Assembly (NCBI GenBank): GCA_965200125.1
Contig: OZ241332.1
Location: forward strand, 2,627,260 to 2,691,259
Length of the DNA stretch: 64,000 bases
Reading direction: 5' to 3'
DNA from: an uncultured Candidatus Binatia bacterium
GTDB lineage: Bacteria > Desulfobacterota > Binatia > Bin18
The notes beneath the pieces were generated by a model. The model ran no database searches, was not told the origin of the DNA, and saw nothing but the letters and a program-made list of their open reading frames with translations. The position numbers and the translations under genes are program-made. Shown piece by piece: positions 41,143 to 56,645 of this stretch. Position 1 is the stretch's first letter; each line of letters opens with the position of its first letter.

Positions 41143-43467
41143 TCAGACGCCGCGGAAATTGTAGGTCAGTTCCAGGCCGAAGGTGCGGCCCCGCTCCAAT
41201 GCCGAAATGCTGCCGAGGGTCGGCGAGACGGTCAGGTCTTCGCCGGCCCGGGCGAAGTTCAGCAGATTCCTGCCGTAGAGACCTACCACCCACTGCCCGT
41301 CGTCGAGGTACAGGTCCATGCCCGCGTCCACGATCTTCTGCTGCCGGTTGAAGCCCAGATTGTCGGCCGTGTCGTACGACTTGTCCCGGTAGGCGTAGTT
41401 GGCCCGCGAGACGAGCCGGTGGCGGGCGCCGATCCGCAGCGTATGCTGCACGCCCAAGCTGTACGTCCAGGTCGGGACGCGTGGCAGCTCGACGTCTTCG
41501 TCCCGCCCATCCACCTGCCCGTCGTAGGTGAGGTCGTACGCGACCTTGGTGTAGTCGGCCTCCAGGTACCCGGCGGAGCCGAGCAGGGTCAGGTCGGGGG
41601 TGACGGCGAAACTGCCCTCGACCTCGAACCCCCACGTTTCCGCGTCGCCAATGGTCCGGGTGAACGGCACGTATAAGGGCGGCAACGACGGTACGGGCAC
41701 ACGCTGGAGGAGAAACACCTGACGTCGCACGTCGTCGATGAAGTTGTAGAAGAACGCCGCGTTGACGTAGGTCCCCGGGCCGAACGTGTGCTTGACACCG
41801 AGCTCGAACGTGTCCACCCGCTCGTCGTCGAACGACAGATCGTCGAATTCGTCGGTCACGGCCAACCCGGCGAGTTGCTCCGGGGACAGGATGCGGTGGA
41901 GCTTGACGGATCTGTCGCGCAGATTGTAGCCGCCGGGCCGGAAGCTGCGCCGCCAATGCCCGTAGAGCAGTGCCTGCTCGTCGAACCGGTAGGTCAAGCC
42001 GACCTTGGGCGACCAGTAGTTCCAGCTTTCGCCGTCTTCGTAATCGGGGGAGCACTCGGGGCCGTCCACGACGTGGCACGATGCGAGGTTGAACGCCGAA
42101 CCCGTGACGGTCGCGTCCTTCTCGTCGCGGGTCCAGCGCAGCCCCGCGGTCAACGTCAGGCGGTCGGTCAGGTCGTAGTCGCCGTTCAGGAACAGGGCGA
42201 ACGATTCGAGGTCGTGATGGCCGCCACCGTTCTGCTCGAGTCTGCCGCCCGGAAAGGCGGTCAGATACCGGTCGTGGTTGATCGTCTCGTTGGTGAAGTA
42301 ATAGAAGCCGGCGGTCAGGAACAGCCGGTCGAAGAACACTCCGGTGTAGCGCAGTTCGTTGCTGACCTGTTCCGCGGTGTGGGCGATCTGGGTATCGAGG
42401 GTGGGTTGCGGCGTCGCGTCGAGGTCGACCGCCTGATCGAGCCGGCTGTCGCGCCAGCCGAAGATGTTGGTGACCGTGCCGTTGCCCAGCGCCACGTCCC
42501 AGTCCGCCCGCAGGCGGAAGAAGTGCACTTCGGCCCGGTTGTAGCCCTCTTCGTCGATCGCGAAGTCGTGGCTGTCGCGATCGAAGACGGCGCTCCGGTC
42601 GAAGTAGCTCGCGCGGTTCTGGGTGGGGCGGCCGTCGCCGTCGCCGTCCTGCCATTCGTAGCGCAGCGTCAGGTCGAGGTTCTCCGTGGGTCGCCACGAG
42701 ACCACCGGCCGCAGCGAGACGTAGTCCCAGGCGCCGAACGCCTTGCCGTTGTGCCGGTTCTTGAACCAGCCCTGGTCCTGGTTGGAGTACACGTTCAGGC
42801 GGGCGCCCAGCGTCTCGGTCAGCGGAGCGTTCAGCATCCCCGACACGTACACGTTGGGGGCCTTGCCGCCGCCTTCCACCGAACTGCGCACCGTGGCTTC
42901 GTAGCGGTCCGTGGGCCGTTTGGTTTCGAGCAGCACGGCGCCGCCGACCATGCTGCGGCCGAACAGCGTGCTCTGCGGACCGCGCAGGATTTCGATGGAT
43001 TCCAGGTCGTACACGTCGTGCAGGGCCGTGAAGCTGGTGCCCACGTACACGCCATCGACGAACAGACCGACGCTGTGGTCCACGGCCGGGAGGGAATTGT
43101 TGGCGCCCAGCCCGCGGATGGAGAAGTGGGCGACTCCGCGCGCGACGTTGCGGTCGTCCAACTGCACGTTGGGCAGGCCGATGGACAGATTGGTCAGATT
43201 CCGCACCTTCATCACGTCGATCCGCTCCGCCTCGAACGCGGTGACCGCTCCGGGCACCTCCTGCGGGGGCAATTCGAGTTGTCTTTCCGCGGCGACTTCC
43301 ACGGCTTCCAGCCGCTGGGGTTGCGCGGCCGCTCGTGATTCCGTCTCGGCCGCGGGCGGACTGGCGGTCTGCGCCTGGGCCGGCAGTCCGCCCAGCGTCA
43401 GCACGGCGCCGAGCGCGAAGGCCCGCAGGGCGGCGGGCGTGGCAGTGCTCCGATGCGTGGTGTCCAT
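41143..43467 (-). CDS. TonB-dependent receptor (paralogue 1 of 5)
   Basis: Signal peptide; plug motifs FSIRG, VGLFVDGVY, IEILRGPQSTLFGR; C-terminus GRTFGLELTYNFRGV. Confidence 0.93.
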   Translation of the reverse strand: MDTTHRSTATPAALRAFALGAVLTLGGLPAQAQTASPPAAETESRAAAQPQRLEAVEVAAERQLELPPQEVPGAVTAFEAERIDVMKVRNLTNLSIGLPNVQLDDRNVARGVAHFSIRGLGANNSLPAVDHSVGLFVDGVYVGTSFTALHDVYDLESIEILRGPQSTLFGRSMVGGAVLLETKRPTDRYEATVRSSVEGGGKAPNVYVSGMLNAPLTETLGARLNVYSNQDQGWFKNRHNGKAFGAWDYVSLRPVVSWRPTENLDLTLRYEWQDGDGDGRPTQNRASYFDRSAVFDRDSHDFAIDEEGYNRAEVHFFRLRADWDVALGNGTVTNIFGWRDSRLDQAVDLDATPQPTLDTQIAHTAEQVSNELRYTGVFFDRLFLTAGFYYFTNETINHDRYLTAFPGGRLEQNGGGHHDLESFALFLNGDYDLTDRLTLTAGLRWTRDEKDATVTGSAFNLASCHVVDGPECSPDYEDGESWNYWSPKVGLTYRFDEQALLYGHWRRSFRPGGYNLRDRSVKLHRILSPEQLAGLAVTDEFDDLSFDDERVDTFELGVKHTFGPGTYVNAAFFYNFIDDVRRQVFLLQRVPVPSLPPLYVPFTRTIGDAETWGFEVEGSFAVTPDLTLLGSAGYLEADYTKVAYDLTYDGQVDGRDEDVELPRVPTWTYSLGVQHTLRIGARHRLVSRANYAYRDKSYDTADNLGFNRQQKIVDAGMDLYLDDGQWVVGLYGRNLLNFARAGEDLTVSPTLGSISALERGRTFGLELTYNFRGV

Positions 43468-43587
43468 ACGGGTCCTCCGTTTCAGCCGCGGCGTGGCCGG
43501 CGCATTCGTTCATCGTGTGCGAACGATTCCCGCGCCGCCTGCCCCGACTCTCCTTACTATGACCGTCGGAAAAAAGGAAGGAAGGGA

Positions 43588-43616
43588 ATTACATACAAGA
43601 GGATACTAACGGTCAA
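43588..43616 (-). promoter_or_regulatory. Putative sigma70 promoter of TBDR 1
   Basis: TTGACC-17 nt-TGTAAT on the minus strand, ~120 nt upstream of the ATG. Confidence 0.55.
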
Positions 43617-43635
43617 AGGCCGGGGTGACAGCGGG

Positions 43636-43820
43636 GTTCGTTTCGACAGGCTCAACGAACTTAGGGGGGAGCGGGGAAGGTCCTTGAGCCTGCGATGCTC
43701 TGAGCTTGTCGAAGAGTCGAAAGGCCGGGGGCGGGGGATAGTGTGAGAATGGGGGTCCCATCGGGGTCCGTTTCTACCCTTCGACAGGCTCAGGGACCAG
43801 GGGGAGGGCTGGGGAGAGGG
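43636..43820. repeat. Cluster of invariant-loop hairpins including a nested 24-nt insertion (43693-43716)
   Basis: GTTCGTT-loop-AACGAAC; CCTT-GAGCCTG[24 nt]TCGA-AAGG; CCCT-loop-AGGGACCAG. Confidence 0.85.
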
Positions 43821-43882
43821 TCCCCCGAGGGTCCCCCGAAGTCGCCTCGGCGTTCCGAACCGAGGCGCTCCCGAACCCCCGT

Positions 43883-46252
43883 TCAGACGCCGCGGAAATT
43901 ATAGGTCAGTTCCAGGCCGAAGGTGCGGCCCCGCTCCAACGGCGAAGTGGTGCCGCCGGGGACGAACGGCACAATCGCGCTGTCCGTGCCGGCCCGGGCG
44001 AAGTCCAACAGATTCCTGCCGTACAGCCCGACCACCCACTGCCCGTCGTCGAGGAACAGGTCCATGCCCGCGTCCACGATCTTCTGCTGCCGGTTGAAGC
44101 CCAGATTGTCCGTCGTATTGTACGCCTTGTCCCGATACGCGTAGTTGACGCGCGAGACGAGCCTGTGGCGCAGGCCGAGTGGCAGCGTATGCTGCACGCC
44201 CAGGCTGTACGTCCAGGTCGGGGCGCGCGGGATCTCCAGGTCCTCGTCCTGTCCATCGACCCGCCCGTCGAGGTTGAGGTCGCGCACCGTCCTGGTGTAG
44301 TCCGCCTCCAGGTAGCCCGCGGAGCCGAGTACGGTCAGATCGGAGGTGACGGCCACGCTGCCCTCGATCTCGAAGCCCCACGTTTCGGCGTCGCCCGCGT
44401 TCCGGGTCAACGGCACGAATCTCGAACCCGTCACCACGTTCCCCCTCTCGTCCAGGACCAGCGTCCTGTTCAAGACGGTGATAGTCCGTTCGGTGAACAG
44501 GATGTGGCGTTGTACGTCGTCGATGAAGTTGTAGAAGAACACCGCGTTGACGTAGGTCCGCGGGCCGAACGTCTTCTTGACCCCGAGCTCGAACGTATCC
44601 ACCCGCTCGTCGTCGAACGACAGGTCGTTGAACTCGTCGGTCAGGACGAGCCCGCGCTCCGCCAAGAAGGCGCGTTGCCCCGGCCCGTAGAACGCATAGA
44701 GGTTCACGGACAGATCGCGCAGATTGTAGCCGCCGGGCCGGTGGCCGCGGCGCCAATGCCCATAGACCAGCGTCTGCTCGTCGAAGCGGTAGCTCAGCCC
44801 GACCTTGGGCGACCAGTGGTTCCAGCTTTCGTCGTAGGTGTGATGGCGGGGACAGGTCGGGCCGTCCACGACGTGGCACTCCGTCCGGTGCCGATACATG
44901 CTCGTGACGGTCGCGTCCTTCTCGTCGCGGGTCCAGCGCAGTCCCGCGGTCAGCGTCAGACGGTCGGTCAGGTCGTAGTCCCCGTTCAGGAACAGGGCGA
45001 AGGATTCGAGGTCCAGGTCGCCGCCGCCGACGGCATCAAATCCCGAGGTGGGAAAGTCGTGCCGGTCGTGGTGGAGGAGCTCGTTGGTGAAGTAGTAGAA
45101 GCCGGTCGTCAGGAACAGGCGGTCGAAGAACACGCCGGTGTAGCGTAGTTCGTTGCTGACCTGTTCCGCGGTCTGGGTCGCGCCGGAGGTGAAGAGGGGT
45201 CGCGGCGTCGCATCGATGTCGCCCAGCGTGTCGAGCCGGGCGTCGCGCCAGCCGAAGATGTTGGTGACCGTGCCGTGACCAAGCGCCACGTCCCAGTCCG
45301 CCCGCAGATTGAAGAAGTGCGTCTCGACCCGGGTGTAGCCCGCTTCGTCGATCGCGAAGTCGTGGCTGTCGCGGTCGTACAGTCCCCGGCTCTGGGCCGC
45401 GGGGCCGTCGCCGTCGCCGTCCTGCCATTCGTAGCGCAGCGTCAGGTCCAGCGTCTCCGTGGGCTGCCACGAGACCACCGGGCGCAGCGAGACGTAGTCG
45501 TGCGTGCCGAAGGCCCGGCCGTCGTGCTCGTTCTCGAACCAGCCCTGGTCCTGGTTGGAGTACACGTTCAGGCGGACGCCCAACGTCTCGGTCAGCGGGG
45601 CGTTCAGCATGCCCGACACGTACACGTTGGGGGCCTTGCCGCCGCCTTCCACCGAACTGCGCACCGTGGCTTCGTAGCGGTCCGTGGGCCGTTTGGTTTC
45701 GAGCAGCACGGCGCCGCCGACCACGTTGCGGCCGAACAGCGTGCTCTGCGGACCGCGCAGGATTTCGATGGATTCCAGGTCGTACACGTCGTGCAGGGCC
45801 GCGACGGTGGTGCCCACGTACACGCCATCGACGAACACGCCGACGCTCGGGTCGATGCCCGGGTCGAGGGCCGGGAGGGAACTGTTGGCGCCCATCCCGC
45901 GGATCGAGAAGTGGGCGACCCCGCGCGCAACGCTCCGGTCATCCAACTGCACGTTGGGCAGGCCGATGGACAGGTTGGTCAGATTGCGCACCTTCAGGAC
46001 GTCGATCTGCTCGGCTTCGAACGCGGAGACCGCCGCGGGCATTTCTTGCGGGGGCAATTCGAGTTGCCTTTCCGCGGCGACTTCCACGGCTTCCAGGCGT
46101 TGGGGTTCCGCGTCCGCTCGTCGTTCGGTCTCGGCCGCGGGTGGACTGGCGGTCTGCGCATAGGCTGGCAGCGCGCCCAGCGTCAGCGCCACGCCGAGCG
46201 CGAAGGCCCGCAGGGCGGTGGGTGTGGCGGTGTTTCGATGCGTGGTGTCCAT
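43883..46252 (-). CDS. TonB-dependent receptor (paralogue 2 of 5)
   Basis: Same motifs; close paralogue of TBDR 1 including the leader; GGAGG RBS before ATG 46252. Confidence 0.93.
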   Translation of the reverse strand: MDTTHRNTATPTALRAFALGVALTLGALPAYAQTASPPAAETERRADAEPQRLEAVEVAAERQLELPPQEMPAAVSAFEAEQIDVLKVRNLTNLSIGLPNVQLDDRSVARGVAHFSIRGMGANSSLPALDPGIDPSVGVFVDGVYVGTTVAALHDVYDLESIEILRGPQSTLFGRNVVGGAVLLETKRPTDRYEATVRSSVEGGGKAPNVYVSGMLNAPLTETLGVRLNVYSNQDQGWFENEHDGRAFGTHDYVSLRPVVSWQPTETLDLTLRYEWQDGDGDGPAAQSRGLYDRDSHDFAIDEAGYTRVETHFFNLRADWDVALGHGTVTNIFGWRDARLDTLGDIDATPRPLFTSGATQTAEQVSNELRYTGVFFDRLFLTTGFYYFTNELLHHDRHDFPTSGFDAVGGGDLDLESFALFLNGDYDLTDRLTLTAGLRWTRDEKDATVTSMYRHRTECHVVDGPTCPRHHTYDESWNHWSPKVGLSYRFDEQTLVYGHWRRGHRPGGYNLRDLSVNLYAFYGPGQRAFLAERGLVLTDEFNDLSFDDERVDTFELGVKKTFGPRTYVNAVFFYNFIDDVQRHILFTERTITVLNRTLVLDERGNVVTGSRFVPLTRNAGDAETWGFEIEGSVAVTSDLTVLGSAGYLEADYTRTVRDLNLDGRVDGQDEDLEIPRAPTWTYSLGVQHTLPLGLRHRLVSRVNYAYRDKAYNTTDNLGFNRQQKIVDAGMDLFLDDGQWVVGLYGRNLLDFARAGTDSAIVPFVPGGTTSPLERGRTFGLELTYNFRGV

Positions 46253-46372
46253 ACGTGTCCTCCGTTTCAGCCGCGGCGTGGCCGGCGCGTTCGTTTCACC
46301 GTGTGCGAACGATTCCCGCGCCGCCTGCCCCGACTTTCTTTCCATGATCGTCGTAAAAAAGGAAGGAAGGGA

Positions 46373-46401
46373 ATTATATACAAGAGGTCTCTAACGGTCG
46401 A
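46373..46401 (-). promoter_or_regulatory. Putative sigma70 promoter of TBDR 2
   Basis: TCGACC-17 nt-TATAAT, positionally equivalent to the TBDR 1 promoter. Confidence 0.55.
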
Positions 46402-46420
46402 AGGCCGAGGTGACATTGGG

Positions 46421-46575
46421 GTTCGTTTCGACAGGCTCAACGAACTTAGGGAGGAAGCGGGGAAGGTCCTTGAGCCTGTCGAAAGGCCGGGGGCGGGGGA
46501 TATAGTGTGAGAATAGGGGTCCCATCGGGGTCCGTTTCTACCCTTCGACAGGCTCAGGAACCAGGGAAAGGGTCC
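46421..46575. repeat. Cluster of invariant-loop hairpins, paralogous to 43636-43820 but without the nested insertion
   Basis: CCTT-GAGCCTGTCGA-AAGG at 46468-46486 is uninterrupted. Confidence 0.85.
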
Positions 46576-46633
46576 CCCGAGAGCCCCCGCAGTCACCTCG
46601 ACATTCCGAACCGAGACCCTCCCGAACCCCGGC

Positions 46634-49036
46634 TCAGACGCCCCGGAAATTATAGGTCAGTTCCAGGCCGAAGGTGCGGCCCTTCGCCAGCGGGGAGAAG
46701 GTGCCGGCCCCGAGCGAGGCCGGCAACTGCGTATCACCGCCGAAGCGGGCCACGTCCAGCAGGTTCTTGCCGTACAGGCCGATGATCCACTGCCCGTCGT
46801 TGACGTACAGGTCCACGCCGGCGTCGAGGATCTTCTGCTGGCGGTTGAACCCGAGATTGTCGTCGCTGTCGTACCACTTGTCGCGGTACGCATAGTTGAT
46901 CCGCGAGGCGAGCCGGTGGCGATGGCCGAGCCGCAGCGTGTGCAGCAAACCGAAGCTGTACGTCCAGCGCGGGGCGCGCGGCGGGTCGAGGTCCTCGTCC
47001 CGGCCGTTCACCTCACCGTCGCGGTTCAGGTCGAATTTGACCTTGTCGTACTCCGTGTCCACGTAGCCCGCGGACCCGAGCAGAACCAAGCTGGGCGTCA
47101 GGGCGAAACTGCTTTCGACCTCGAAGCCCCACAGTTCGGCGTCGGCCGTGTTGCGGATCACCTGCACGACGTTCCCTTGCGTCCGCAGACTGGGCCGCCC
47201 GCCGACGAAGTCGATCACGGGGGCGCCGGTCGCCGGATTGATGACGGGAAGCTCCTGCGGGAACACCAGTTCGCGCTGCATGTCGTCGATGAAGTTGTAG
47301 AAAAAGGCCGCGTTGACGCGGGCGCGCGTGCCGAACGTCTTCTTGAGGCCGATCTCGAAATTATCGATCTGCTCTTCGTCGAACGCCTGGGCGTCCAGGT
47401 CGCGGGGAATCACCAGCCCGAGCGCTTCGAGTTGCGCGACCTGCACGGCCGGCAGCGTGCGGCGCAGATTCAGGAACGTGTCGCGCAGGTTGTAGCCGCC
47501 GGACCGGAAGCCGCGCGTCCAGTGCGCGTACAGCAGGGTGTCGTCGTCGAAGCGGTAGGTCAGCCCGATCTTGGGCGACAGGTTGCTCCAGCTTTCGTCG
47601 TCTTTGAAATGGGTGGGGCAGTCGGGGCCATCCACGATGTGGCACGGCGCGGCGTTGGTATTCCGGGTCAGGTTGGTGATGGCGGCTTCCTTATCCTCAT
47701 GGGTCCAGCGCAGACCCGCGTTGAACGTCAGCTTGTCGGTCAGGTCGTAATCGCCGTTCATGAACAGCCCGAAGGTTTCGACGTCGTAGTCGCCGCCGCC
47801 GTGCTGCCGCACCGTCCCGAAGGCCAGGTCGCGCGACTCGTGGTATTTGATCTCGTTGTTGAAATAGTAGAAGCCGGTCGTCAGGAACAGCCGGTCGAAG
47901 AACAGTCCGGCGTAGCGCAGCTCGTTGCTGAACTGTTCCGCGGCCAGGTCGGCGCCGCCGTGGAACAGCGGCCGCGGCGTGGCGTCGATGTCGCTCAGCG
48001 CGTTCCCCTCGCTGTCGCGCCAGCCGAAGATGTTGGTGACCGTGCCGTTGCCCAACGCCACGTTCCAGTCCGCGCGGAAGTTGAAGAAGTGCACTTCGGC
48101 CCGGTTGTAGCCCTCTTCGTCGATCGCGAAATCGTGGCTGTCGCGGTCGTAGTTGGCGAACGGGTTGGCGCGTCCCAAGCCGTCGGTATGGTTCTGGGCG
48201 GGCGGGCCGTCGCCGTCGATGTCCTGATATTCGTAGCGCAGCGTCAGGTCGAGGTTCTTCGTGGGCTGCCAGGAGAAGACCGGGCGCAGCATCAGCGTGT
48301 CCTGCGCGCCGAACGCCTTGCCGTTGAGCCGGTTCTTGAACCAGCCCTGGTCCTGGTTGGAGTACACGGTGAACCGGGCGCCCAGGGTGTCCGTCAGCGG
48401 GGCGTTCAGCGTGCCCGACACGTACACGTTGGGCGCCTTGCCGCCGCCTTCCACCGCACTGCGCACCGTGGCTTCGTAGGAGTCGGTCGGCTTCCTGGTG
48501 TTGAGCAGGACGGCGCCGCCGACCACGTTGCGGCCGAACAGCACGCCCTGCGGGCCGCGCAGGACCTCGATGCCCTCCAGGTCGAAGGTGTCGTACAGCA
48601 CCGTGGCGTTGGTCCCCATATACACCCCGTCGACGAACACGCCGACGGTCGGGTCGATGGACGGAATGGAACTGTTGATCCCGAGGCCGCGGATGGAGAA
48701 GTTCGCCACGCCGCGCGTCGTCCCCACGTCGTCCAGCGTGACGTTGGGCATGTTGATGGACAGGCTGGTCAGGTCGCGCACCTTCAGGGCGTCGATCCGT
48801 TCCGCGTCGAAGGCGGTGACGGACACGGGCACGTCCTGGAGCAGTTGCTCCCGCTTCTGGGCGGTGACCACGACGTCTTCGAGCAGCAGGGGCGTCTCTG
48901 CGGCCGCCGCCTCACCCCCCCCCGTCTCGCTTTCCTGGGCCGCGGCCGGCAACGCGCCGACCGTCAGCGCGAGGCACAGGACGAGGACGCGCAGAGCGGC
49001 TGGCATTCCGTCGATACGATGTGGTGTCTTCTCCAT
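46634..49036 (-). CDS. TonB-dependent receptor (paralogue 3 of 5)
   Basis: LEDVVVTAQKRE TonB-box region, IEVLRGPQGVLFGRN, C-terminus GRTFGLELTYNFRGV; likely start 49036. Confidence 0.94.
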   Translation of the reverse strand: MEKTPHRIDGMPAALRVLVLCLALTVGALPAAAQESETGGGEAAAAETPLLLEDVVVTAQKREQLLQDVPVSVTAFDAERIDALKVRDLTSLSINMPNVTLDDVGTTRGVANFSIRGLGINSSIPSIDPTVGVFVDGVYMGTNATVLYDTFDLEGIEVLRGPQGVLFGRNVVGGAVLLNTRKPTDSYEATVRSAVEGGGKAPNVYVSGTLNAPLTDTLGARFTVYSNQDQGWFKNRLNGKAFGAQDTLMLRPVFSWQPTKNLDLTLRYEYQDIDGDGPPAQNHTDGLGRANPFANYDRDSHDFAIDEEGYNRAEVHFFNFRADWNVALGNGTVTNIFGWRDSEGNALSDIDATPRPLFHGGADLAAEQFSNELRYAGLFFDRLFLTTGFYYFNNEIKYHESRDLAFGTVRQHGGGDYDVETFGLFMNGDYDLTDKLTFNAGLRWTHEDKEAAITNLTRNTNAAPCHIVDGPDCPTHFKDDESWSNLSPKIGLTYRFDDDTLLYAHWTRGFRSGGYNLRDTFLNLRRTLPAVQVAQLEALGLVIPRDLDAQAFDEEQIDNFEIGLKKTFGTRARVNAAFFYNFIDDMQRELVFPQELPVINPATGAPVIDFVGGRPSLRTQGNVVQVIRNTADAELWGFEVESSFALTPSLVLLGSAGYVDTEYDKVKFDLNRDGEVNGRDEDLDPPRAPRWTYSFGLLHTLRLGHRHRLASRINYAYRDKWYDSDDNLGFNRQQKILDAGVDLYVNDGQWIIGLYGKNLLDVARFGGDTQLPASLGAGTFSPLAKGRTFGLELTYNFRGV

Positions 49037-49344
49037 GCGTATGCTCCATTTCGGCCGCGGTGTGGTGCCGCGGGTGCGGGTGTGGTTGGAAAATTCCGTA
49101 TCGAGAGACCGGAGCGGGGAACGCGTGCGTCGCGCTCGGCGAAACGCTGACGGAGGCGCTGCCTCCGTCAGTCGCCGTAGAGACCCCTCCAAGGCCGCAA
49201 CCCTACGCAGAATCCGGGAGCGGGTAAAGTGCTGCTTCCTGCTTTCATTCCGGTCTTGATGCGTGTCTCGGTGGAAAATTCTCGGTTGATTGGACGTTGG
49301 TGCCGTGGTCGGGGACCCTCTCCCTGGTCTCCGAGTCTGCGGTG

Positions 49345-50100
49345 TCCTGAGCTTGTCGAAGGGCCGAGGGTGGGGGCGAAGGCCGAGGTGCCGTCGGGGT
49401 TCGTTTCGATGTTTCGACCTTTCGACAAGCTCAAGGCACCGCAAGCTCAACGAACTTGGGGGCGGCGAGGTCCCTGAGCTTGTCGAAGGGCCGGGGCGGG
49501 GGGCGAAGGCTGAGGTGCCGTCGGGGTTCGTTTCGATGTTTCGACAAGCTCAACACATCGCAGGCTCAACGAACTTGGGGGCGGCGAGGTCCCTGAGCTT
49601 GTCGAAGGGCCGGGGCGGGAGCGAAGGCCGGGGTGCCGTCGGGGTTCGTTTCGATGTTTCGACAAGCTCAACACATCGCAGGCTCAACGAACTTGGGGGC
49701 GGCGAGGTCCCTGAGCTTGTCGAAGGGCCGGGGCGGGAGCGAAGGCCGAGGTGCCGTCGGGGTTCGTTTCGACAAGCTCAACGAACTTGGGGGCGGCGAG
49801 GTCCCTGAGCTTGTCGAAGGGCCGGGGTGGGGGGCGAAGGCTGAGGTGCCGTCGGGGTTCGTTTCGACAGGCTCAACGAACTTGGGGGCAGCGAGGTCCT
49901 TGAGCTTGTCGAAGGGCCGGGGCGGGGGGCGAAGGCCGAGGTGCCGTCGGGGTTCGTTTCGACAAGCTCAACGAACTTGGGGGCGGCGAGGTCCCTGAGC
50001 TTGTCGAAGGGCCGGGGCGGGGGGCGAAGGCCGAGGTGCCGTCGGGGTTCGTTTCGACAGGCTCAACGAACTTGGGGATGGGAAGGTCCCCGAGCTTGCG
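49345..50100. repeat. Tandem array of seven ~95-127 bp palindromic units (BIME-like, not CRISPR)
   Basis: TGAGCTTGTCGAAGGG starts at 49348, 49475, 49594, 49712, 49806, 49901 and 49996 (partial copy at 50091); intervening sequences are near-identical. Confidence 0.93.
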
Positions 50101-50163
50101 CTGCTTTGCTCTTGGTTGGTGAGCCTGCGCCGCCGGCTCGAAAGCGGCATGGCGGAGACGCGC

Positions 50164-52410
50164 TCAGACGCCCGCGAAGTTATAGGTCAACTCCAGGCCG
50201 AAGGTGCGGCCTTTCATCAGCGGGGAGAAGTCGCCGAACGAGGAGACGAAGTTGATGCCGTGGCCGACCTCGTCCAGCAGGTTCTTGCCGTACAGGCCGA
50301 TCGCCCAGCGGCCGTCGGCGAGATGCAGGTCCACCCCGGCCTCCAGCTTCTTGAGTTGGCGGTTGAATCCCCGGTTGTTGTCCTGGTGGTATTCCTTGTC
50401 CCGATAGGAGTACTGCACCCGCGTGTCGAGCCGGTGCGCGTGGCCGAGAGGCAGGCGGTGACGCAGCCCCAGGCTGTACGTCCAGGTCGGCGCGCGGATC
50501 GGGTCGAGGGCTTCGTCCTTCCCGTCCACCGCGCCGTCGCCGTTCAAGTCGCGCCAGACGTCGGTATAGTTCGTGTCCAGATAGCCGAGCGAGCCGTGGA
50601 GCACGAGGCCGTCCGCCAGCGCCACGGACCCGTCGAGTTCGACGCCGAACAGATTCAGGTCCGCGGTGTTGAGCGTGTTCTGTACCGCGGACCCGGTCGC
50701 GCTGCCCGTCAGCACCACGCGCTGCAGGTCTTCGACCATGTTGAAGAACACCGCACCGTTGAGCCGCGCACGCGCCCCGAACGTGCGTTTGAAGCCCAGC
50801 TCGAAATTGTCCACCTTCTCCTCGTCCGTCGGGCCGGGGTCGGTGCCGTCCGCGGTGATGCGCACGTTGTAATTGCCGGACCGGAACCCGCGCGTCCAAT
50901 GCCAGTACACCAGCGTGTGCTCCGCGGGCCGCCACGTCAGCCCGACCTTGGGCGAAAAGCTGTTCCAGCGTTCCTCGTCCGTGAAATCGCTCGGGCAGCG
51001 CGGGCCGCGCACCATGTCGCAGCCGGGGGCGGCCCGGTCGGTCCGCCGGTTGCGTTGCACGTAGGCCACGTCGACTTCCTTCTCCTCGTGCGTGTAGCGC
51101 AACCCCGCGGTCAGCGTCAGCCAGTCGGTCAGGTCGTAGTCCCCACTCACGAACAGCCCCAGCGTGTCCACGTCGTAGTAGCCGCCGCCGAACTGGTCGT
51201 ACGGGGCGAACTCCTGCCATTGGTGGTAGTCGAGGTCGTTGGTGAAATAATAGACGCCGGTGGACAGGCGCAGCCGGTCGAAGAACACGCCGGTGTAGCG
51301 CAATTCGTTGCTGAACTGTTCGGACTCCTGCCGCGTCCCCAGGTTGTAGGCGAACTGGTCCATCGGCGTGCCGTCGAGGTCGCTCAGGGCGTGGCTGCGC
51401 GTGGTGCGCCAGCCGAAGATGTCCGTCAGCGTGCCGTTGCCCAACGCCACGTCCCAATCCAGCCGCGCGTTGAAGAAGTGCACCTCCGCGTCGAGAAAGC
51501 CGTCCTCGTCCACGAAGAATTTATGGTCGCGGCGGTCGTAATAGCGCGTGTTCTGGCTGGCCGGCCCGTCGGCGTCGATGTGCTGGCATTCGTAGCGCAG
51601 CGTCAGGTCCACGTTCTCGGCCGGCGCCCAGTTCACGACCGGGCGCAGCATCAGCGTGTCCTGCGCGCCGAACGCCTTGCCGTCGCGCCGGTTCTCGAAC
51701 CAGCCCTGATCCTGATTGGAATACACCGAGAAGCGGACTGCCAGCCGCTCGGCCAGCGGCGCGTTGAGCGTGGCGGACGTGAAGAAGTTCGGCGCCTTGC
51801 CGCCGCCCTCCACCGCGCTGCGCACTTTCGCTTCGTACCGGTCGGTCGGGGCTTTGGTATTGAGCAGCACGGCGCCGCCGACCACGTTGCGGCCGAACAG
51901 CACGCCCTGCGGGCCGCGCAGCACCTCGATGCCGTCCAGGTCGAAGGCGTCGTACAGCATCACCGTGCTCGTGCCCATATAGACCCCGTCCACGAACACC
52001 CCCACGGTCGGATCGACGGAGGGGACCGAACTGTTCACGCCCATGCCGCGGATGGAGAAATTCGCGGTGCCGCGCGAGGTGCCGATCTCGTCGAACCCCA
52101 CGTTGGGAATGCCGACGGTGAGGTCGCGCAGGTCGCGCAGCTTCGTCGCGGCGAGTTGCTCGGCATCGAAGGCGGTGATGGACAGCGGCACGTCCTGAAT
52201 GAGTTGCTCGCGTTTCTGCGCGGTCACGACGACGGCGTCCAGCAGCGCGGTGTCCTCTTCGGCCGCGGACTCCGCATCGGCTGTGGACGGAGCATCTTGC
52301 GCCGCGGCCGGCAGCGGAGCGGTCGCCAGTACCAGCGCCGTTCCCAACGCGAGCAGGCGCCGGAGCGGGGTGCGGTCGGGGAGGCGGAGCGTGCTGTGGA
52401 CGGGGCTCAT
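50164..52410 (-). CDS. TonB-dependent receptor (paralogue 4 of 5)
   Basis: LDAVVVTAQKRE, plug motifs, C-terminus GRTFGLELTYNFAGV. Confidence 0.94.
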   Translation of the reverse strand: MSPVHSTLRLPDRTPLRRLLALGTALVLATAPLPAAAQDAPSTADAESAAEEDTALLDAVVVTAQKREQLIQDVPLSITAFDAEQLAATKLRDLRDLTVGIPNVGFDEIGTSRGTANFSIRGMGVNSSVPSVDPTVGVFVDGVYMGTSTVMLYDAFDLDGIEVLRGPQGVLFGRNVVGGAVLLNTKAPTDRYEAKVRSAVEGGGKAPNFFTSATLNAPLAERLAVRFSVYSNQDQGWFENRRDGKAFGAQDTLMLRPVVNWAPAENVDLTLRYECQHIDADGPASQNTRYYDRRDHKFFVDEDGFLDAEVHFFNARLDWDVALGNGTLTDIFGWRTTRSHALSDLDGTPMDQFAYNLGTRQESEQFSNELRYTGVFFDRLRLSTGVYYFTNDLDYHQWQEFAPYDQFGGGYYDVDTLGLFVSGDYDLTDWLTLTAGLRYTHEEKEVDVAYVQRNRRTDRAAPGCDMVRGPRCPSDFTDEERWNSFSPKVGLTWRPAEHTLVYWHWTRGFRSGNYNVRITADGTDPGPTDEEKVDNFELGFKRTFGARARLNGAVFFNMVEDLQRVVLTGSATGSAVQNTLNTADLNLFGVELDGSVALADGLVLHGSLGYLDTNYTDVWRDLNGDGAVDGKDEALDPIRAPTWTYSLGLRHRLPLGHAHRLDTRVQYSYRDKEYHQDNNRGFNRQLKKLEAGVDLHLADGRWAIGLYGKNLLDEVGHGINFVSSFGDFSPLMKGRTFGLELTYNFAGV

Positions 52411-52453
52411 CGTCTTCTCCTTCTCATTCAGTTGCGATGCTGCGGCCGGGGGA

Positions 52454-52632
52454 CCCTCTCTCCCGGATCGAGTCCGGGGCAGGCTCTAATCCTCCCCCGG
52501 AGGGGGAGGGGACGGAAAGGGATTACAGACAGGATAGTTTCCAAGACTCACCCCAGCTTGCCCCTCCTTATCCCAATAAAAAGCAAATCCCCTCTCCCTC
52601 CCCTTCGACAGGCTCAGGGACCAGGGAGAGGG
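52454..52632. repeat. Composite palindromic repeats between TBDR 4 and TBDR 5
   Basis: cccggatcgagtccggggcaggctc module and cccttcgacaggctcagggaccag module inside CCCTCTCCC-type repeats. Confidence 0.75.
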
Positions 52633-52722
52633 TCCTCTTGGAGTCGCCTCGACATTGTACACTCGAACACTCCAGAACACTCCGTTCTTCCCCCGCTCGC
52701 AGGCGGAATGGCGGAGACGCCC

Positions 52723-54981
52723 TCAGACGCCCCGAAAACGATAGGTCAACTCCAGGCCGAAGGTGCGGCCCTTCATCAGCGTCGAAAAGACGCCGAACGA
52801 GGTGCGCAGGTTCCCGCCGTGACTGACCTCGTCCAACAGGTTCTTGCCGTACACGCCGATCGCCCAGCGGCCGTCGGCGAGATACAGGTCCAGCCCGGCC
52901 TCCAATTTCTTGAGTTGGCGGTTGAATCCCGTGTTGTCGTCCGAGTGGTACTCCCGGTCCCGGTACGCATACTGCACCCGCGCGTCGAGCCGGTGCCGGC
53001 GGCCGAGGGGCAGGCGGTGGAGCAGCCCCAGGCTGTACGTCCAGGTCGGCGCGCGGATCGGGTCGAGGGCTTCGTCTCTCCCGTCCACCGCGCCGTCGCC
53101 GTTCAGGTCGCGGCGGACTTCCGTGTAGTCCGTGTCCAGATAGCCCAGCGATCCGTGGAGCACGAGGCCGTCCGCCAGCGCCACGGACCCGTCGAGTTCG
53201 ACGCCGAACAGATTCAGGTCCGCGGTGTTGAGCGTATCCTGTACCGCTATGGCCGTGCCGATGTCGCTGCGCACCACCACGCGCTGCAAATCCTCGACCA
53301 TGTTGAAGAAGACCGCGCCGTTGAGCCGGACGCGCGAACCCGGCGTGCTCTTGAAGCCGAGCTCGAAGTTATCGACCTGCTCCTCGTCGGTCGGGCCGGG
53401 ATCGGTGCCGTCGGCCGTGATGCGCACGTTGTAGTTGCCCGACCGGAAGCCGCGCGTCCAATGCCAGTACACCAGCAGGCGGTCCGCGGGCCGGAGCGTC
53501 AGCCCGACCTTGGGCGAAAAGCTGTTCCAGCGTTCGTCGCCCGCGAAATCGCTGGGACAGCGCGGGCCGCGCACCATGTTGCAGCCGGGATCGTCCAGGT
53601 CGGTCCGCGGGTTGCGTTGCAGATAGGCGACGTCCGCTTCCTTCTCCTCGTGGGTATAGCGCAGCCCCGCGGTCAGCGTCAGCCAGGCGGTCAGGTCGTA
53701 GTCCCCGCTCACGAACAGCCCCAGCGTGTCCACGTCGTAATAGCCGCCGCCGAACTGGTTGAGCTCCGCGAACTCCCGCCACTCCTGATAGTCGAGGTCG
53801 TTGGTGAAGTAATAGACGCCGGTGGACAGGCGCAGCCGGTCGAAGAACACGCCCGTGTAGCGCAACTCGTTGCTGAACTGCTCCGCGGCCTGCTCGGTGC
53901 CGAAATCCAACCGGAACTGCTGCCTGGGCGTGCCGTCCAGGTCGCTCAGGGCGTGGCTGCGCGTGGTGCGCCAGCCGAAGATGTTCGTCAGCGTGCCGTT
54001 ACCCAAGCCGACGTCCCAATCCAGCCGCGCGTTGAGGAAATGCACCTCCGCGTCGAGAAAGCCGTCCTCGTCCACGAAGAATTTGTGATCGCGGCGGTCG
54101 TAATACCGCTGGTTCTGGGCGGCCGGCCCGTCGGCGTCGATGCTTTGGTACTCGTAGCGGAGCGTCAAATCGACGGTGTCGGTCGGCCTCCAGTGCACGA
54201 CGGGGCGGAGCATCAGCGTATCCTGCGCGCCGAACGCCTTGCCGTCGCGGCGGTTCTCGAACCAGCCCTGGTCCTGGTTGGAATACACCGAGAAGCGGAC
54301 CGCCAACGTGTCCGCCAGCGGCGCGTTGAGCGTGGCGGACGTGAAGAAGTTGGGCGCCTTGCCGCCGCCTTCCACCGCGCTGCGGACCGTGGCTTCGTAC
54401 CGGTCGATCGGGGCTTTGGTATTGAGCAGCACGGCGCCGCCGACCACGTTGCGACCGAACAGCACGCCCTGCGGGCCGCGCAGCACCTCGATGCCGTCCA
54501 GGTCGAAGGCGTCGTACAGCATCACCGTGTTCGTGCCCATATAGACCCCGTCCACGAACACGCCCACGGTCGGATCGACGGACGGGACCGACCCGCTGAC
54601 GCCCATGCCGCGGATGGAGAAATTCGCGGTGCCGCGCGAGGTGCCGATCTCGTCGAGCCCCACGTTCGGAATGCCGACGGTCAGGTCGCGCAGGTCGCGG
54701 AGCTTCACGGTGTCGAGATGTTCGGCGTCGAAGGCGGTGATGGACAGCGGCACGTCCTGAATGAGTTGCTCGCGTTTCTGCGCGGTCACGACGACGGCGT
54801 CCAGCAGCGCGGCGCCGGCTTCGGGCGCCGTATCAGCCGCCGGCGGAGGGTCCTGCGCCGCGGCCGACGCCGGAAGGATCGCCAACGGCAGCAGGACGCC
54901 CAGCGTGAGCAGGCGCCACACGGGCGAAGGTCCATATGCGCGGTTCGGTCGGTGCGCGTCCATTCGAGGGATGGGAGACAT
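52723..54981 (-). CDS. TonB-dependent receptor (paralogue 5 of 5)
   Basis: Close paralogue of TBDR 4; C-terminus GRTFGLELTYRFRGV; start uncertain (54981 or 54963). Confidence 0.94.
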   Translation of the reverse strand: MSPIPRMDAHRPNRAYGPSPVWRLLTLGVLLPLAILPASAAAQDPPPAADTAPEAGAALLDAVVVTAQKREQLIQDVPLSITAFDAEHLDTVKLRDLRDLTVGIPNVGLDEIGTSRGTANFSIRGMGVSGSVPSVDPTVGVFVDGVYMGTNTVMLYDAFDLDGIEVLRGPQGVLFGRNVVGGAVLLNTKAPIDRYEATVRSAVEGGGKAPNFFTSATLNAPLADTLAVRFSVYSNQDQGWFENRRDGKAFGAQDTLMLRPVVHWRPTDTVDLTLRYEYQSIDADGPAAQNQRYYDRRDHKFFVDEDGFLDAEVHFLNARLDWDVGLGNGTLTNIFGWRTTRSHALSDLDGTPRQQFRLDFGTEQAAEQFSNELRYTGVFFDRLRLSTGVYYFTNDLDYQEWREFAELNQFGGGYYDVDTLGLFVSGDYDLTAWLTLTAGLRYTHEEKEADVAYLQRNPRTDLDDPGCNMVRGPRCPSDFAGDERWNSFSPKVGLTLRPADRLLVYWHWTRGFRSGNYNVRITADGTDPGPTDEEQVDNFELGFKSTPGSRVRLNGAVFFNMVEDLQRVVVRSDIGTAIAVQDTLNTADLNLFGVELDGSVALADGLVLHGSLGYLDTDYTEVRRDLNGDGAVDGRDEALDPIRAPTWTYSLGLLHRLPLGRRHRLDARVQYAYRDREYHSDDNTGFNRQLKKLEAGLDLYLADGRWAIGVYGKNLLDEVSHGGNLRTSFGVFSTLMKGRTFGLELTYRFRGV

Positions 54982-55230
54982 GACGTTTCTCTTTTCCGAT
55001 TCCGAATCCGTCGCCAAGGCGCGGAACTACAACATGGGGTCCGCGGGCGGACAAGGTGGGGGTGTTTCTGGGAACGCGCGTTTTGCAATGCCGAGGGCGA
55101 ATCCGGGGGACCCTCTCCCTAGCCCTCTCCCAGAGGGAGAGGAGATTTGCTTCTTATTGGGAAAATAGAGGCAAGCTAGGGTGGGGCACAGGCTCATCTC
55201 GTCTCTCTTTCCCTTCCCTTTCTGCCCCTT

Positions 55231-56421: not shown

Positions 56422-56645
56422 GTTCGTTGAGCCTGCGGCGCCTTGAGCTTGCGGTGTCCTGAGCTTGCGGTGCCTTGAGCCTGTCGAAAGGTCGAAACAT
56501 CGAAACGAACCCCAAGGGGACTCCTGCTCTCACACGCTACCCCCCGCCCCCGGCCTTTCGACAGGCTCAAGGACCTTCCCCGCCTCCCCCCTAAGTTCGT
56601 TGAGCCTGTCGAAACGAACCCCGATAGCACCTCGGCCTTCGCACC
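56422..56645. repeat. Multiply nested invariant-loop hairpin cluster
   Basis: Nested structure at 56422-56510 plus two plain copies; reverse-orientation relative of the 49.3-50.1 kb unit. Confidence 0.85.

Follow-up and report, generated by a model that had tools for sequence, protein, structure and literature searches.

A 24-nucleotide hairpin module nested in loops of its own kind: a candidate non-autonomous mobile element

The window (the whole stretch of 64,000 nucleotides analysed here) holds two similar intergenic regions, each lying upstream of a gene for a TonB-dependent receptor (Pfam Plug and beta-barrel). Aligned to each other, the two regions are identical in 90% of columns and contain one 24-column gap, which falls at a short insert in the first of them (Table 1). 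The earlier note had described this insert (43693-43716) as a hairpin module placed in GAGCCTG^TCGA within the loop of another hairpin, and had called the paralogous site at 46468-46486 empty; direct reading of the sequence bears out both statements, the second site being an uninterrupted CCTT GAGCCTGTCGA AAGG. The insert sits between G7 and T8 of the host loop, and its own 11-nt loop is identical to the loop that it interrupts. All 7 copies of this CTCT module parsed genome-wide (7/7) are identical. Three further inserts listed in the note (49537-49560, 49655-49678, and 49418-49441) were found as well; read on the minus strand, each of them is a 24-nt insert at the identical G^T position. They lie in a tandem array of composite units that repeat every 118-119 nt if the GTTCGTT loop holds an insert and every 94-95 nt if it does not; four empty loops lie at 49765-50068. 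In the multi-level nest of Table 1 (at genome position 2683687), the innermost 24-nt CCTT module occupies 56468-56491.

Table 1. Hairpin hosts, modules, and nests in the window (window coordinates).
Feature	Position	Strand	Details
Filled host hairpin	43682..43724	+	CCTT GAGCCTG (24-nt insert CGATGCTCTGAGCTTGTCGAAGAG) TCGA AAGG
24-nt CTCT-family module	43693..43716	+	CGATG prefix, CTCT/AGAG stem, loop GAGCTTGTCGA
Empty paralogous host hairpin	46468..46486	+	loop intact
Empty GTTCGTT/AACGAAC host hairpin	43636..43660	-	composite-repeat partner of filled hairpin 43682..43724
Tandem array of composite units	49290..50110	.	hairpins alternate in orientation
GTTCGTT-type host hairpin, filled	49529..49571	-	24-nt TGTT module at 49537-49560
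GTTCGTT-type host hairpin, filled	49647..49689	-	24-nt TGTT module at 49655-49678
Decayed nest	49410..49452	-	CCTT 24-nt module 49418-49441 and orphan 8-nt TGTT half, GTTCGTT host
Multi-level nest	56428..56520	+	left halves CGTT > CCTT > TCCT > CCTT

The predicted folds of the hosts are unequal. The empty GTTCGTT/AACGAAC host, measured on the paralogous copy of 43636..43660, folds at -5.2 kcal/mol (z = -2.95), and the CCTT host gives z = 0.03, its 4-bp stem with an 11-nt loop not being predicted as stable. In the TGTT nests (49525-49575, minus strand), the prefix and first stem base (CGATGT) can pair with ACATCG, which is made up of the end of the insert and the TCG of the host; the resulting longer helix has a predicted energy of -9.3 kcal/mol (z = -2.8), and the other module families have no such extension. 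The array, together with the start of a 1668-aa open reading frame without a Pfam match (50116-55122), belongs to a segment of about 3 kb (49290-52266) that is repeated about five further times in the genome.

The genome holding the window (G000) is a single contig of 4,127,328 bp with 64.9% G+C. The window contains 32 copies of the core GAGCYTGTCGA where chance would give 0.09, and the whole genome contains 688 (349 on the plus strand and 339 on the minus strand), of which 524 are enclosed by a perfectly complementary 4-nt stem. When we searched for GAGCYTG and TCGA split apart between matching outer stems, the gaps were 0 nt in 524 cases, 24 nt in 105, and 23 nt in 38, with further clusters at 47-48 nt and beyond; the deepest stacks reach six levels. 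The hosts with a 7-bp GTTCGTT/AACGAAC stem follow the same steps: their loops measure 11 nt in 150 of 365 matches, 34-35 nt in 116, and 58-59 nt in 34 (counts cover both strands, since the stems are palindromic). Of 184 such hosts, 111 are filled, and all but a few of the empty loops are clean copies of the consensus 11-mer.

From these data the module can be defined as a prefix (CGRTG or YGGT) followed by a 4-bp stem and the 11-nt loop GAGC-N-TGTCGA, 23-24 nt in all, which enters in a single orientation between G7 and T8 of the loop. The earlier note had given every insert a length of 24 nt and a single insertion point. A recursive parse yielded 215 loop insertions in total, and the stated length holds for 143 of them but not for the others, of which 66 measure 23 nt and six measure 22, 25, 26, or 27 nt. 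Similarly, G7^T8 stands as the main point, but the 23-nt class also uses a second one, GAGCY^TGTCGA (Y5^T6), located two bases upstream and unambiguous in one orthologous pair of filled and empty sites (c326). The claim that no target duplication accompanies the insert was upheld, as neither the loop parse nor the clean orthologous events contained a duplicated flank. In G000, the only target is the loop of another hairpin with the same 11-nt loop. Since each inserted module brings a new intact loop that is itself open to insertion, nested stacks arise, with loop contents of 11, 34-35, 58-59, or 82-83 nt.

The modules fall into families by prefix and stem: CGGTG-CCTT, CGGTG-TCCT, CGATG-TGTT, CGATG-CTCT, and CGGTG-CCCT among those of 24 nt, and YGGT-CCCT and YGGT-TGGT among those of 23 nt. 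Consistent with the site-specific, self-targeting behaviour proposed in the note, the small families are found almost exclusively inside the loops of other copies (intact copies so placed: TCCT 27/29, TGTT 19/20, CTCT 9/9, and TGGT 23/26). The CGTT (GTTCGTT) host, part of a composite repeat of about 100 nt with hairpins in alternating orientation, is nested in 0 of 133 cases. Modules of the CCCT, CCTT, and TCCT families each occupy at least four host stem types, which indicates that they home on the loop itself and not on homology in the flanks. TGTT modules lie in one host type in 19 of 21 cases and CTCT modules are restricted likewise; these two may have been carried along with their host or copied by gene conversion. 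Neither covariation between prefix and target bases nor linkage of the module family to the host loop base next to it (Y pairs) was detected.

The 24-mers are near-invariant except in two hypervariable columns, the third of the prefix (G/A) and the fifth of the loop (C/T). The changes in both columns (window positions 43695 and 43706, for example) are transitions, the other 22 columns hardly vary, and this pattern could reflect cytosine deamination at bases that are unpaired when either strand folds. Set against a genome divergence of about 10% from the one relative found to carry the repeat, the near-invariance may point to youth or to constraint.

That relative is a sister species (G013), which is syntenic with G000 and about 88-90% identical to it, with values of 82-93% over long blocks. 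Only these two genomes carry the hairpins and nests, that is, 2 of 28 in the genus and 2 of 41 searched (G000 and 40 relatives). We compared 1.6 of the 4.19 Mb of the sister genome, in which 149 of 444 G000 repeat clusters could be paired. Of 36 well-flanked indels of 15-80 nt between the two species, 12 fall exactly at the loop step (nine with the extra sequence in G000 and three with it in G013), and at least four more indels of 23-24 nt are further cases in which the loop is degenerate or the -2 site was used. Some differences span several levels at once (indels of 42, 48, and 68 nt). Of the 28 host loops that could be matched as orthologues, neither species has an insert in 15, G000 alone has one in seven, G013 alone in two, and both species in four; three of those four carry different families (TCCT versus TGTT) between well-aligned flanks. 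Thus, the comparison of filled and empty alleles that the earlier note had called for produced clean orthologous differences in both directions. These states imply that the host hairpins are older than the split of the two species and that most modules were inserted after it, independently in each lineage, with the reservation that insertion and precise excision are not polarised, as the genomes searched include no outgroup with the repeat. The host composites of the window (43560-43800 and 46350-46560) are absent from the syntenic intergenic sites of the sister species, which suggests that the composites of about 100 nt were themselves gained or lost between the species; the syntenic region there also contains extra receptor paralogues.

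The same architecture recurs far outside this genus. Searching one genome per species with the pattern GAGCYTG-N9-GAGCYTGTCGA-N4-TCGA, we found the nest in at least 105 stretches from many phyla, and the same loop with the 23/24-nt rule recurs in genomes from nine or more further phyla or classes. By record title, the matches listed include isolates and MAGs of Comamonadaceae, Chloroflexota, several isolates of Actinomycetota, Bacteroidia, Vicinamibacteria, Thiomargarita, a Leptospira MAG, a Cylindrospermum strain, Planctomycetota, and Latescibacterota; isolates of Polaromonas and Xenophilus are listed too. Ten of these genomes each contain 9-327 copies of the 13-mer TGAGCYTGTCGAA, against 0-2 of the reversed control; the one Nostocales genome examined contains only 19 copies. 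When the prefix length was left free (4-14 nt) in five of these genomes, all 55 nests were of 24 nt (45) or 23 nt (10). The prefix varies by lineage (CGRTG, GCCTG, CGCCG, CGTTG, GACTC, and others), and the loop and the architecture are constant. Within one family, the repeat is patchy: in a sample of 151 genomes from the family around G044, 20 genomes have 17-252 copies and the others at most 13. Among viral contigs, the nest pattern was found in one contig only. The 15-mer occurs in at least 120 viral stretches, a count that by itself is near a rough chance estimate; however, at the 80 loci examined the 4-bp stem is complete in 57 of 91 occurrences, frequently in inverted doublets, and this complementarity shows that some of the viral copies are real. 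Stand-alone copies in other taxa and in viral contigs often follow a CCGTTCG; as this flank is imperfectly complementary to the 3' arm GTCGAAGGG, a second fold register is possible.

We propose, with a probability of roughly 0.6, that the module is a non-autonomous, loop-homing hairpin element of single-stranded DNA, moved in trans by a nick-and-join activity. A contiguous unit with a fixed orientation and a fixed insertion step, no duplication, stacks in mirrored order, gains after the split of the two species, and presence in unrelated hosts all fit a mobile element, and these same facts exclude slippage and assembly artefact. Because 24 nt cannot encode a protein, mobilisation in trans follows from the size. 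The target would be recognised as a folded single strand, whose stem, by inspection, could be extended by G.A, A.G, and G-C pairs that close a C-N-T-G-T pentaloop. The activity acting in trans would cut in this pentaloop and at both ends of a donor copy, and the module would then be pasted or copied into the cut loop. In our reading, the nick-and-join activity is not an enzyme of the RAYT/IS200 Y1 type. What counts against the proposal is that the search described below found no enzyme, the sister species having no match to Y1_Tnp, IS110, the relaxase family PF03432, or RVT_1. Other points weaken it as well: nests show no bias by replication direction, contrary to what a lagging-strand mechanism of the IS608 type would predict, although the GC skew is weak; no stable fold is predicted for the CCTT host; and TGTT and CTCT modules are restricted in their hosts. 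A bolder and more tentative form of the idea, which we regard as possible, is a pan-bacterial self-homing hairpin of 23-24 nt that has no transposase of its own and whose pentaloop is cut and resealed by a nick-and-join or break-repair activity on single-stranded DNA, either ubiquitous in hosts or brought in transiently by visiting phages or plasmids. Such an activity would explain why the loop is the same in at least ten phyla or classes and in some viral contigs, and why it also occurs in genomes with no recognisable hairpin transposase.

The alternative that survives best requires no dedicated enzyme: structure-specific nucleases break the loops, and templated repair over short homology then copies the contents of a filled loop, the 7-nt and 4-nt loop halves serving as homology arms. 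The conserved loop would follow directly, since only identical loops could donate or receive. Such repair agrees with the insertions found only in the sister species, which has no transposase candidate, with the lack of a replication-strand bias, with species differences that span several levels, and with the concentration of TGTT and CTCT modules in one host type; the orphan 8-nt right halves and other slippage products likewise show that the arrays recombine readily. Nevertheless, repair from a filled loop leaves the first nest of each family unexplained, as well as the constant prefix of 5 (or 4) nt across unrelated phyla and the use of two separate points by the 23-nt class. Arms of 7 and 4 nt are also very short, the stems and flanks of the hosts entered by CCCT, CCTT, and TCCT modules are unrelated, and the module family is unlinked to the neighbouring base of the host loop. 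On balance we consider templated repair rather unlikely as the source of the nests.

By comparison of sequences and protein families, no known transposase appears to account for the module. One candidate is an enzyme of the REP/REPIN type of repeat, namely a RAYT or an IS200/IS605-type Y1 HUH transposase, and several features would suit it: hundreds of intergenic hairpins, inverted doublets and arrays, entry without duplication on the 3' side of a set short sequence, as in IS200/IS605, and, in G000, one RAYT-like Y1 open reading frame with HUH and Y motifs (24.6 bits). Yet the motif does not flank this reading frame, and of the 27 other genomes in the genus, the 10 that hold a homologue of it all lack the repeat. 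In the sister species, which does carry the repeat, neither a homologue nor any match to Y1_Tnp (even at E 0.1) was found. The earlier note had suggested correlating the motif with a nuclease or recombinase family across genomes; run for Y1/RAYT, this comparison was negative. Y1_Tnp was detected in 113 genomes of the 151-genome sample and in 17 of its 20 repeat-rich members, and two genomes with 151 and 171 copies lack it. An IS608-type mechanism on lagging-strand single-stranded DNA would, moreover, predict a strand bias, and none was seen among the nests (62 versus 50 by replication direction, with origin and terminus placed from a weak GC skew). Taken with the absence of a GTAG or CGTC tag and a unit that consists of a single hairpin, these results make movement by a Y1 enzyme very unlikely. 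The RAYT-like reading frame, the only one in the genome, lies outside the window in an island (G000:C1:1117655-1122300) that also encodes an N6 DNA methylase/Eco57I-like protein and an HNH endonuclease, and that corresponds to a G000-specific gap in the synteny with the sister species.

Other candidate enzymes fared no better. IS110 and the relaxase family PF03432 were not found in G000 or G013, RVT_1 has one match in G000 (G000:C1:1644867-1645505) and none in G013, and the TnpB zinc-ribbon family gave sub-threshold matches only. The searches for IS91 Y2 and Rep_1 returned nothing in G000 or G013, but they also returned nothing in any control genome and hence carry little weight. An autonomous copy, sought as loops split by long inserts, yielded just chance pairings of neighbouring elements. 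G000 contains no multi-copy insertion sequence, its multi-copy regions being autotransporter-like and other paralogues, and the genes in the densest repeat regions are of the housekeeping kind. Clustering of open reading frames at 80 loci from other phyla revealed no shared transposase, and no Rfam family matches the repeat. Three further mechanistic ideas were set aside. The rule of type IA topoisomerases, a C at position -4, fits the cut in the target and fails at the right end of the module; base pairing between prefix and target is not borne out by covariation; and integron-attC-like as well as conservative site-specific recombination would yield tandem rather than nested loops.

Replication slippage, in the form of independent tandem duplication of 16-nt left and 8-nt right units, would account for the fact that the left halves (period 15-16 nt) and the right halves (8 nt) are tandem repeats, and for unbalanced forms with a surplus TCGAARGG (21 at gap 8 and 17 at gap 16). 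It does not account for different stems in mirrored order, as in CGTT[TCCT[CCTT..AAGG]AGGA]AACG, and this order refutes slippage for the bulk of cases. The length variation expected from slippage, which the note had named as the outcome that would overturn its reading, was not seen; lengths are quantised, and each species difference is one contiguous block of 23/24 nt. Since nesting like in like creates direct repeats that slip, the extra 8-nt right halves are best read as decay, and slippage, highly improbable as the origin of the nests, explains decay products only. That the nested forms are assembly artefacts, the other doubt voiced in the note, is a practically negligible prospect: short-read contigs from public runs do break at the repeats, but the same architecture is present in the independently assembled sister genome and in cultured isolates of several phyla, and contigs of four runs cover the insert (depth at 43697).

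A mobile hairpin of this kind belongs with the very small non-autonomous hairpin repeats, of which the SDRs of Nostoc and the REP/REPIN elements are closest. SDR1-8 of Nostoc punctiforme, in the work of Elhai and colleagues from 2008, are said to be gene-less, dispersed repeats of 21-27 nt, each entering a short host sequence at one exact point. The module, gene-less and dispersed as well, falls with its 23-24 nt within that size range. SDR5 is stated to enter the palindrome HIP1 (GCGATCGC) between its third and fourth nucleotides (PMC4390886), whereas the target of the module is a loop of its own kind, GAGCYTG^TCGA. The module also occurs in many phyla. REP, BIME, and REPIN elements are likewise short hairpins that lie between genes in hundreds of copies; they form inverted doublets or alternating arrays and are believed to move as single-stranded DNA (PMC3116915; PMC3733652). 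The module resembles them in its abundant intergenic hairpins, inverted doublets, and alternating arrays (49290-50110, for example). REP sequences, however, are described as having a conserved stem, a 5' GTAG or CGTC tag, and short loops (PMC3733652), whereas in the module the 11-nt loop is conserved, the stems vary, and the flanks are CGRTG, YGGT, or AGTT, with neither tag. Furthermore, no RAYT is flanked by the module or distributed with it, and the mobile unit of a REPIN is a doublet, as opposed to a single hairpin of 23-24 nt that lands in the loop of another copy.

Other small or hairpin-directed elements share single traits with the module. IS200/IS605 elements and their gene-less PATE derivatives use single-stranded DNA hairpins, always enter in one orientation on the 3' side of a set tetra- or pentanucleotide, and duplicate no target sequence; they have two different subterminal hairpins, measure at least 100 nt, need TnpA (Y1), and prefer the lagging-strand template. 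The module likewise inserts 3' of GAGCYTG^ in one orientation with no duplicated flank, but it consists of one hairpin with a prefix of 4-5 nt, and no Y1 enzyme was detected in G013. Insertion sequences of the IS1397/ISKpn1 type are aimed at the loop of REP (palindromic unit) sequences, and are kilobase-sized, protein-coding elements that make target duplications. They share with the module the hairpin of a dispersed palindromic repeat as a target and differ from it in that the module has 24 nt and enters its own loop. Compared with MITEs, which derive from DDE transposons, the module has neither terminal inverted repeats (its ends are not inverted repeats of each other) nor a target-site duplication. 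Mitochondrial hairpin elements and GC clusters are described as small gene-less invaders of intergenic regions with conserved stems and variable loops (PMC2800124). The module reverses this pattern, with a conserved loop and free stems, and self-nesting in loops is not part of that description. Our literature comparison, to which Elhai 2008 and its supplements did not belong, yielded no paper with the motif or a description of it. The module may be categorically new if its mechanism needs no dedicated transposase.

If the proposed loop-homing element is real, it would rank among the smallest mobile DNAs known and set a new lower size limit for mobile genetic elements, its 24 bases being both the passenger and the next target. 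It would also point to an unrecognised cutting and joining of DNA on hairpin loops in very different bacteria, and a loop that crosses phyla with one defined cleavage point offers a ready substrate for the biochemical discovery of the enzyme. On a practical level, the nests break short-read assemblies and inflate the intergenic regions upstream of genes such as those for TonB-dependent receptors. Translations of the repeat are presumably the source of recurrent spurious peptides in annotations, of the VRPELVEG and PFDKLRANG types, and similar strings were seen among the open reading frames of the loci from other phyla. Finally, public runs containing at least half of the words sampled from the window at 43000-50500 come from several studies and carry sponge or marine metagenome labels; in Logan contigs of four public runs, the genes are covered at 95-100% identity and the contigs end at the repeats.
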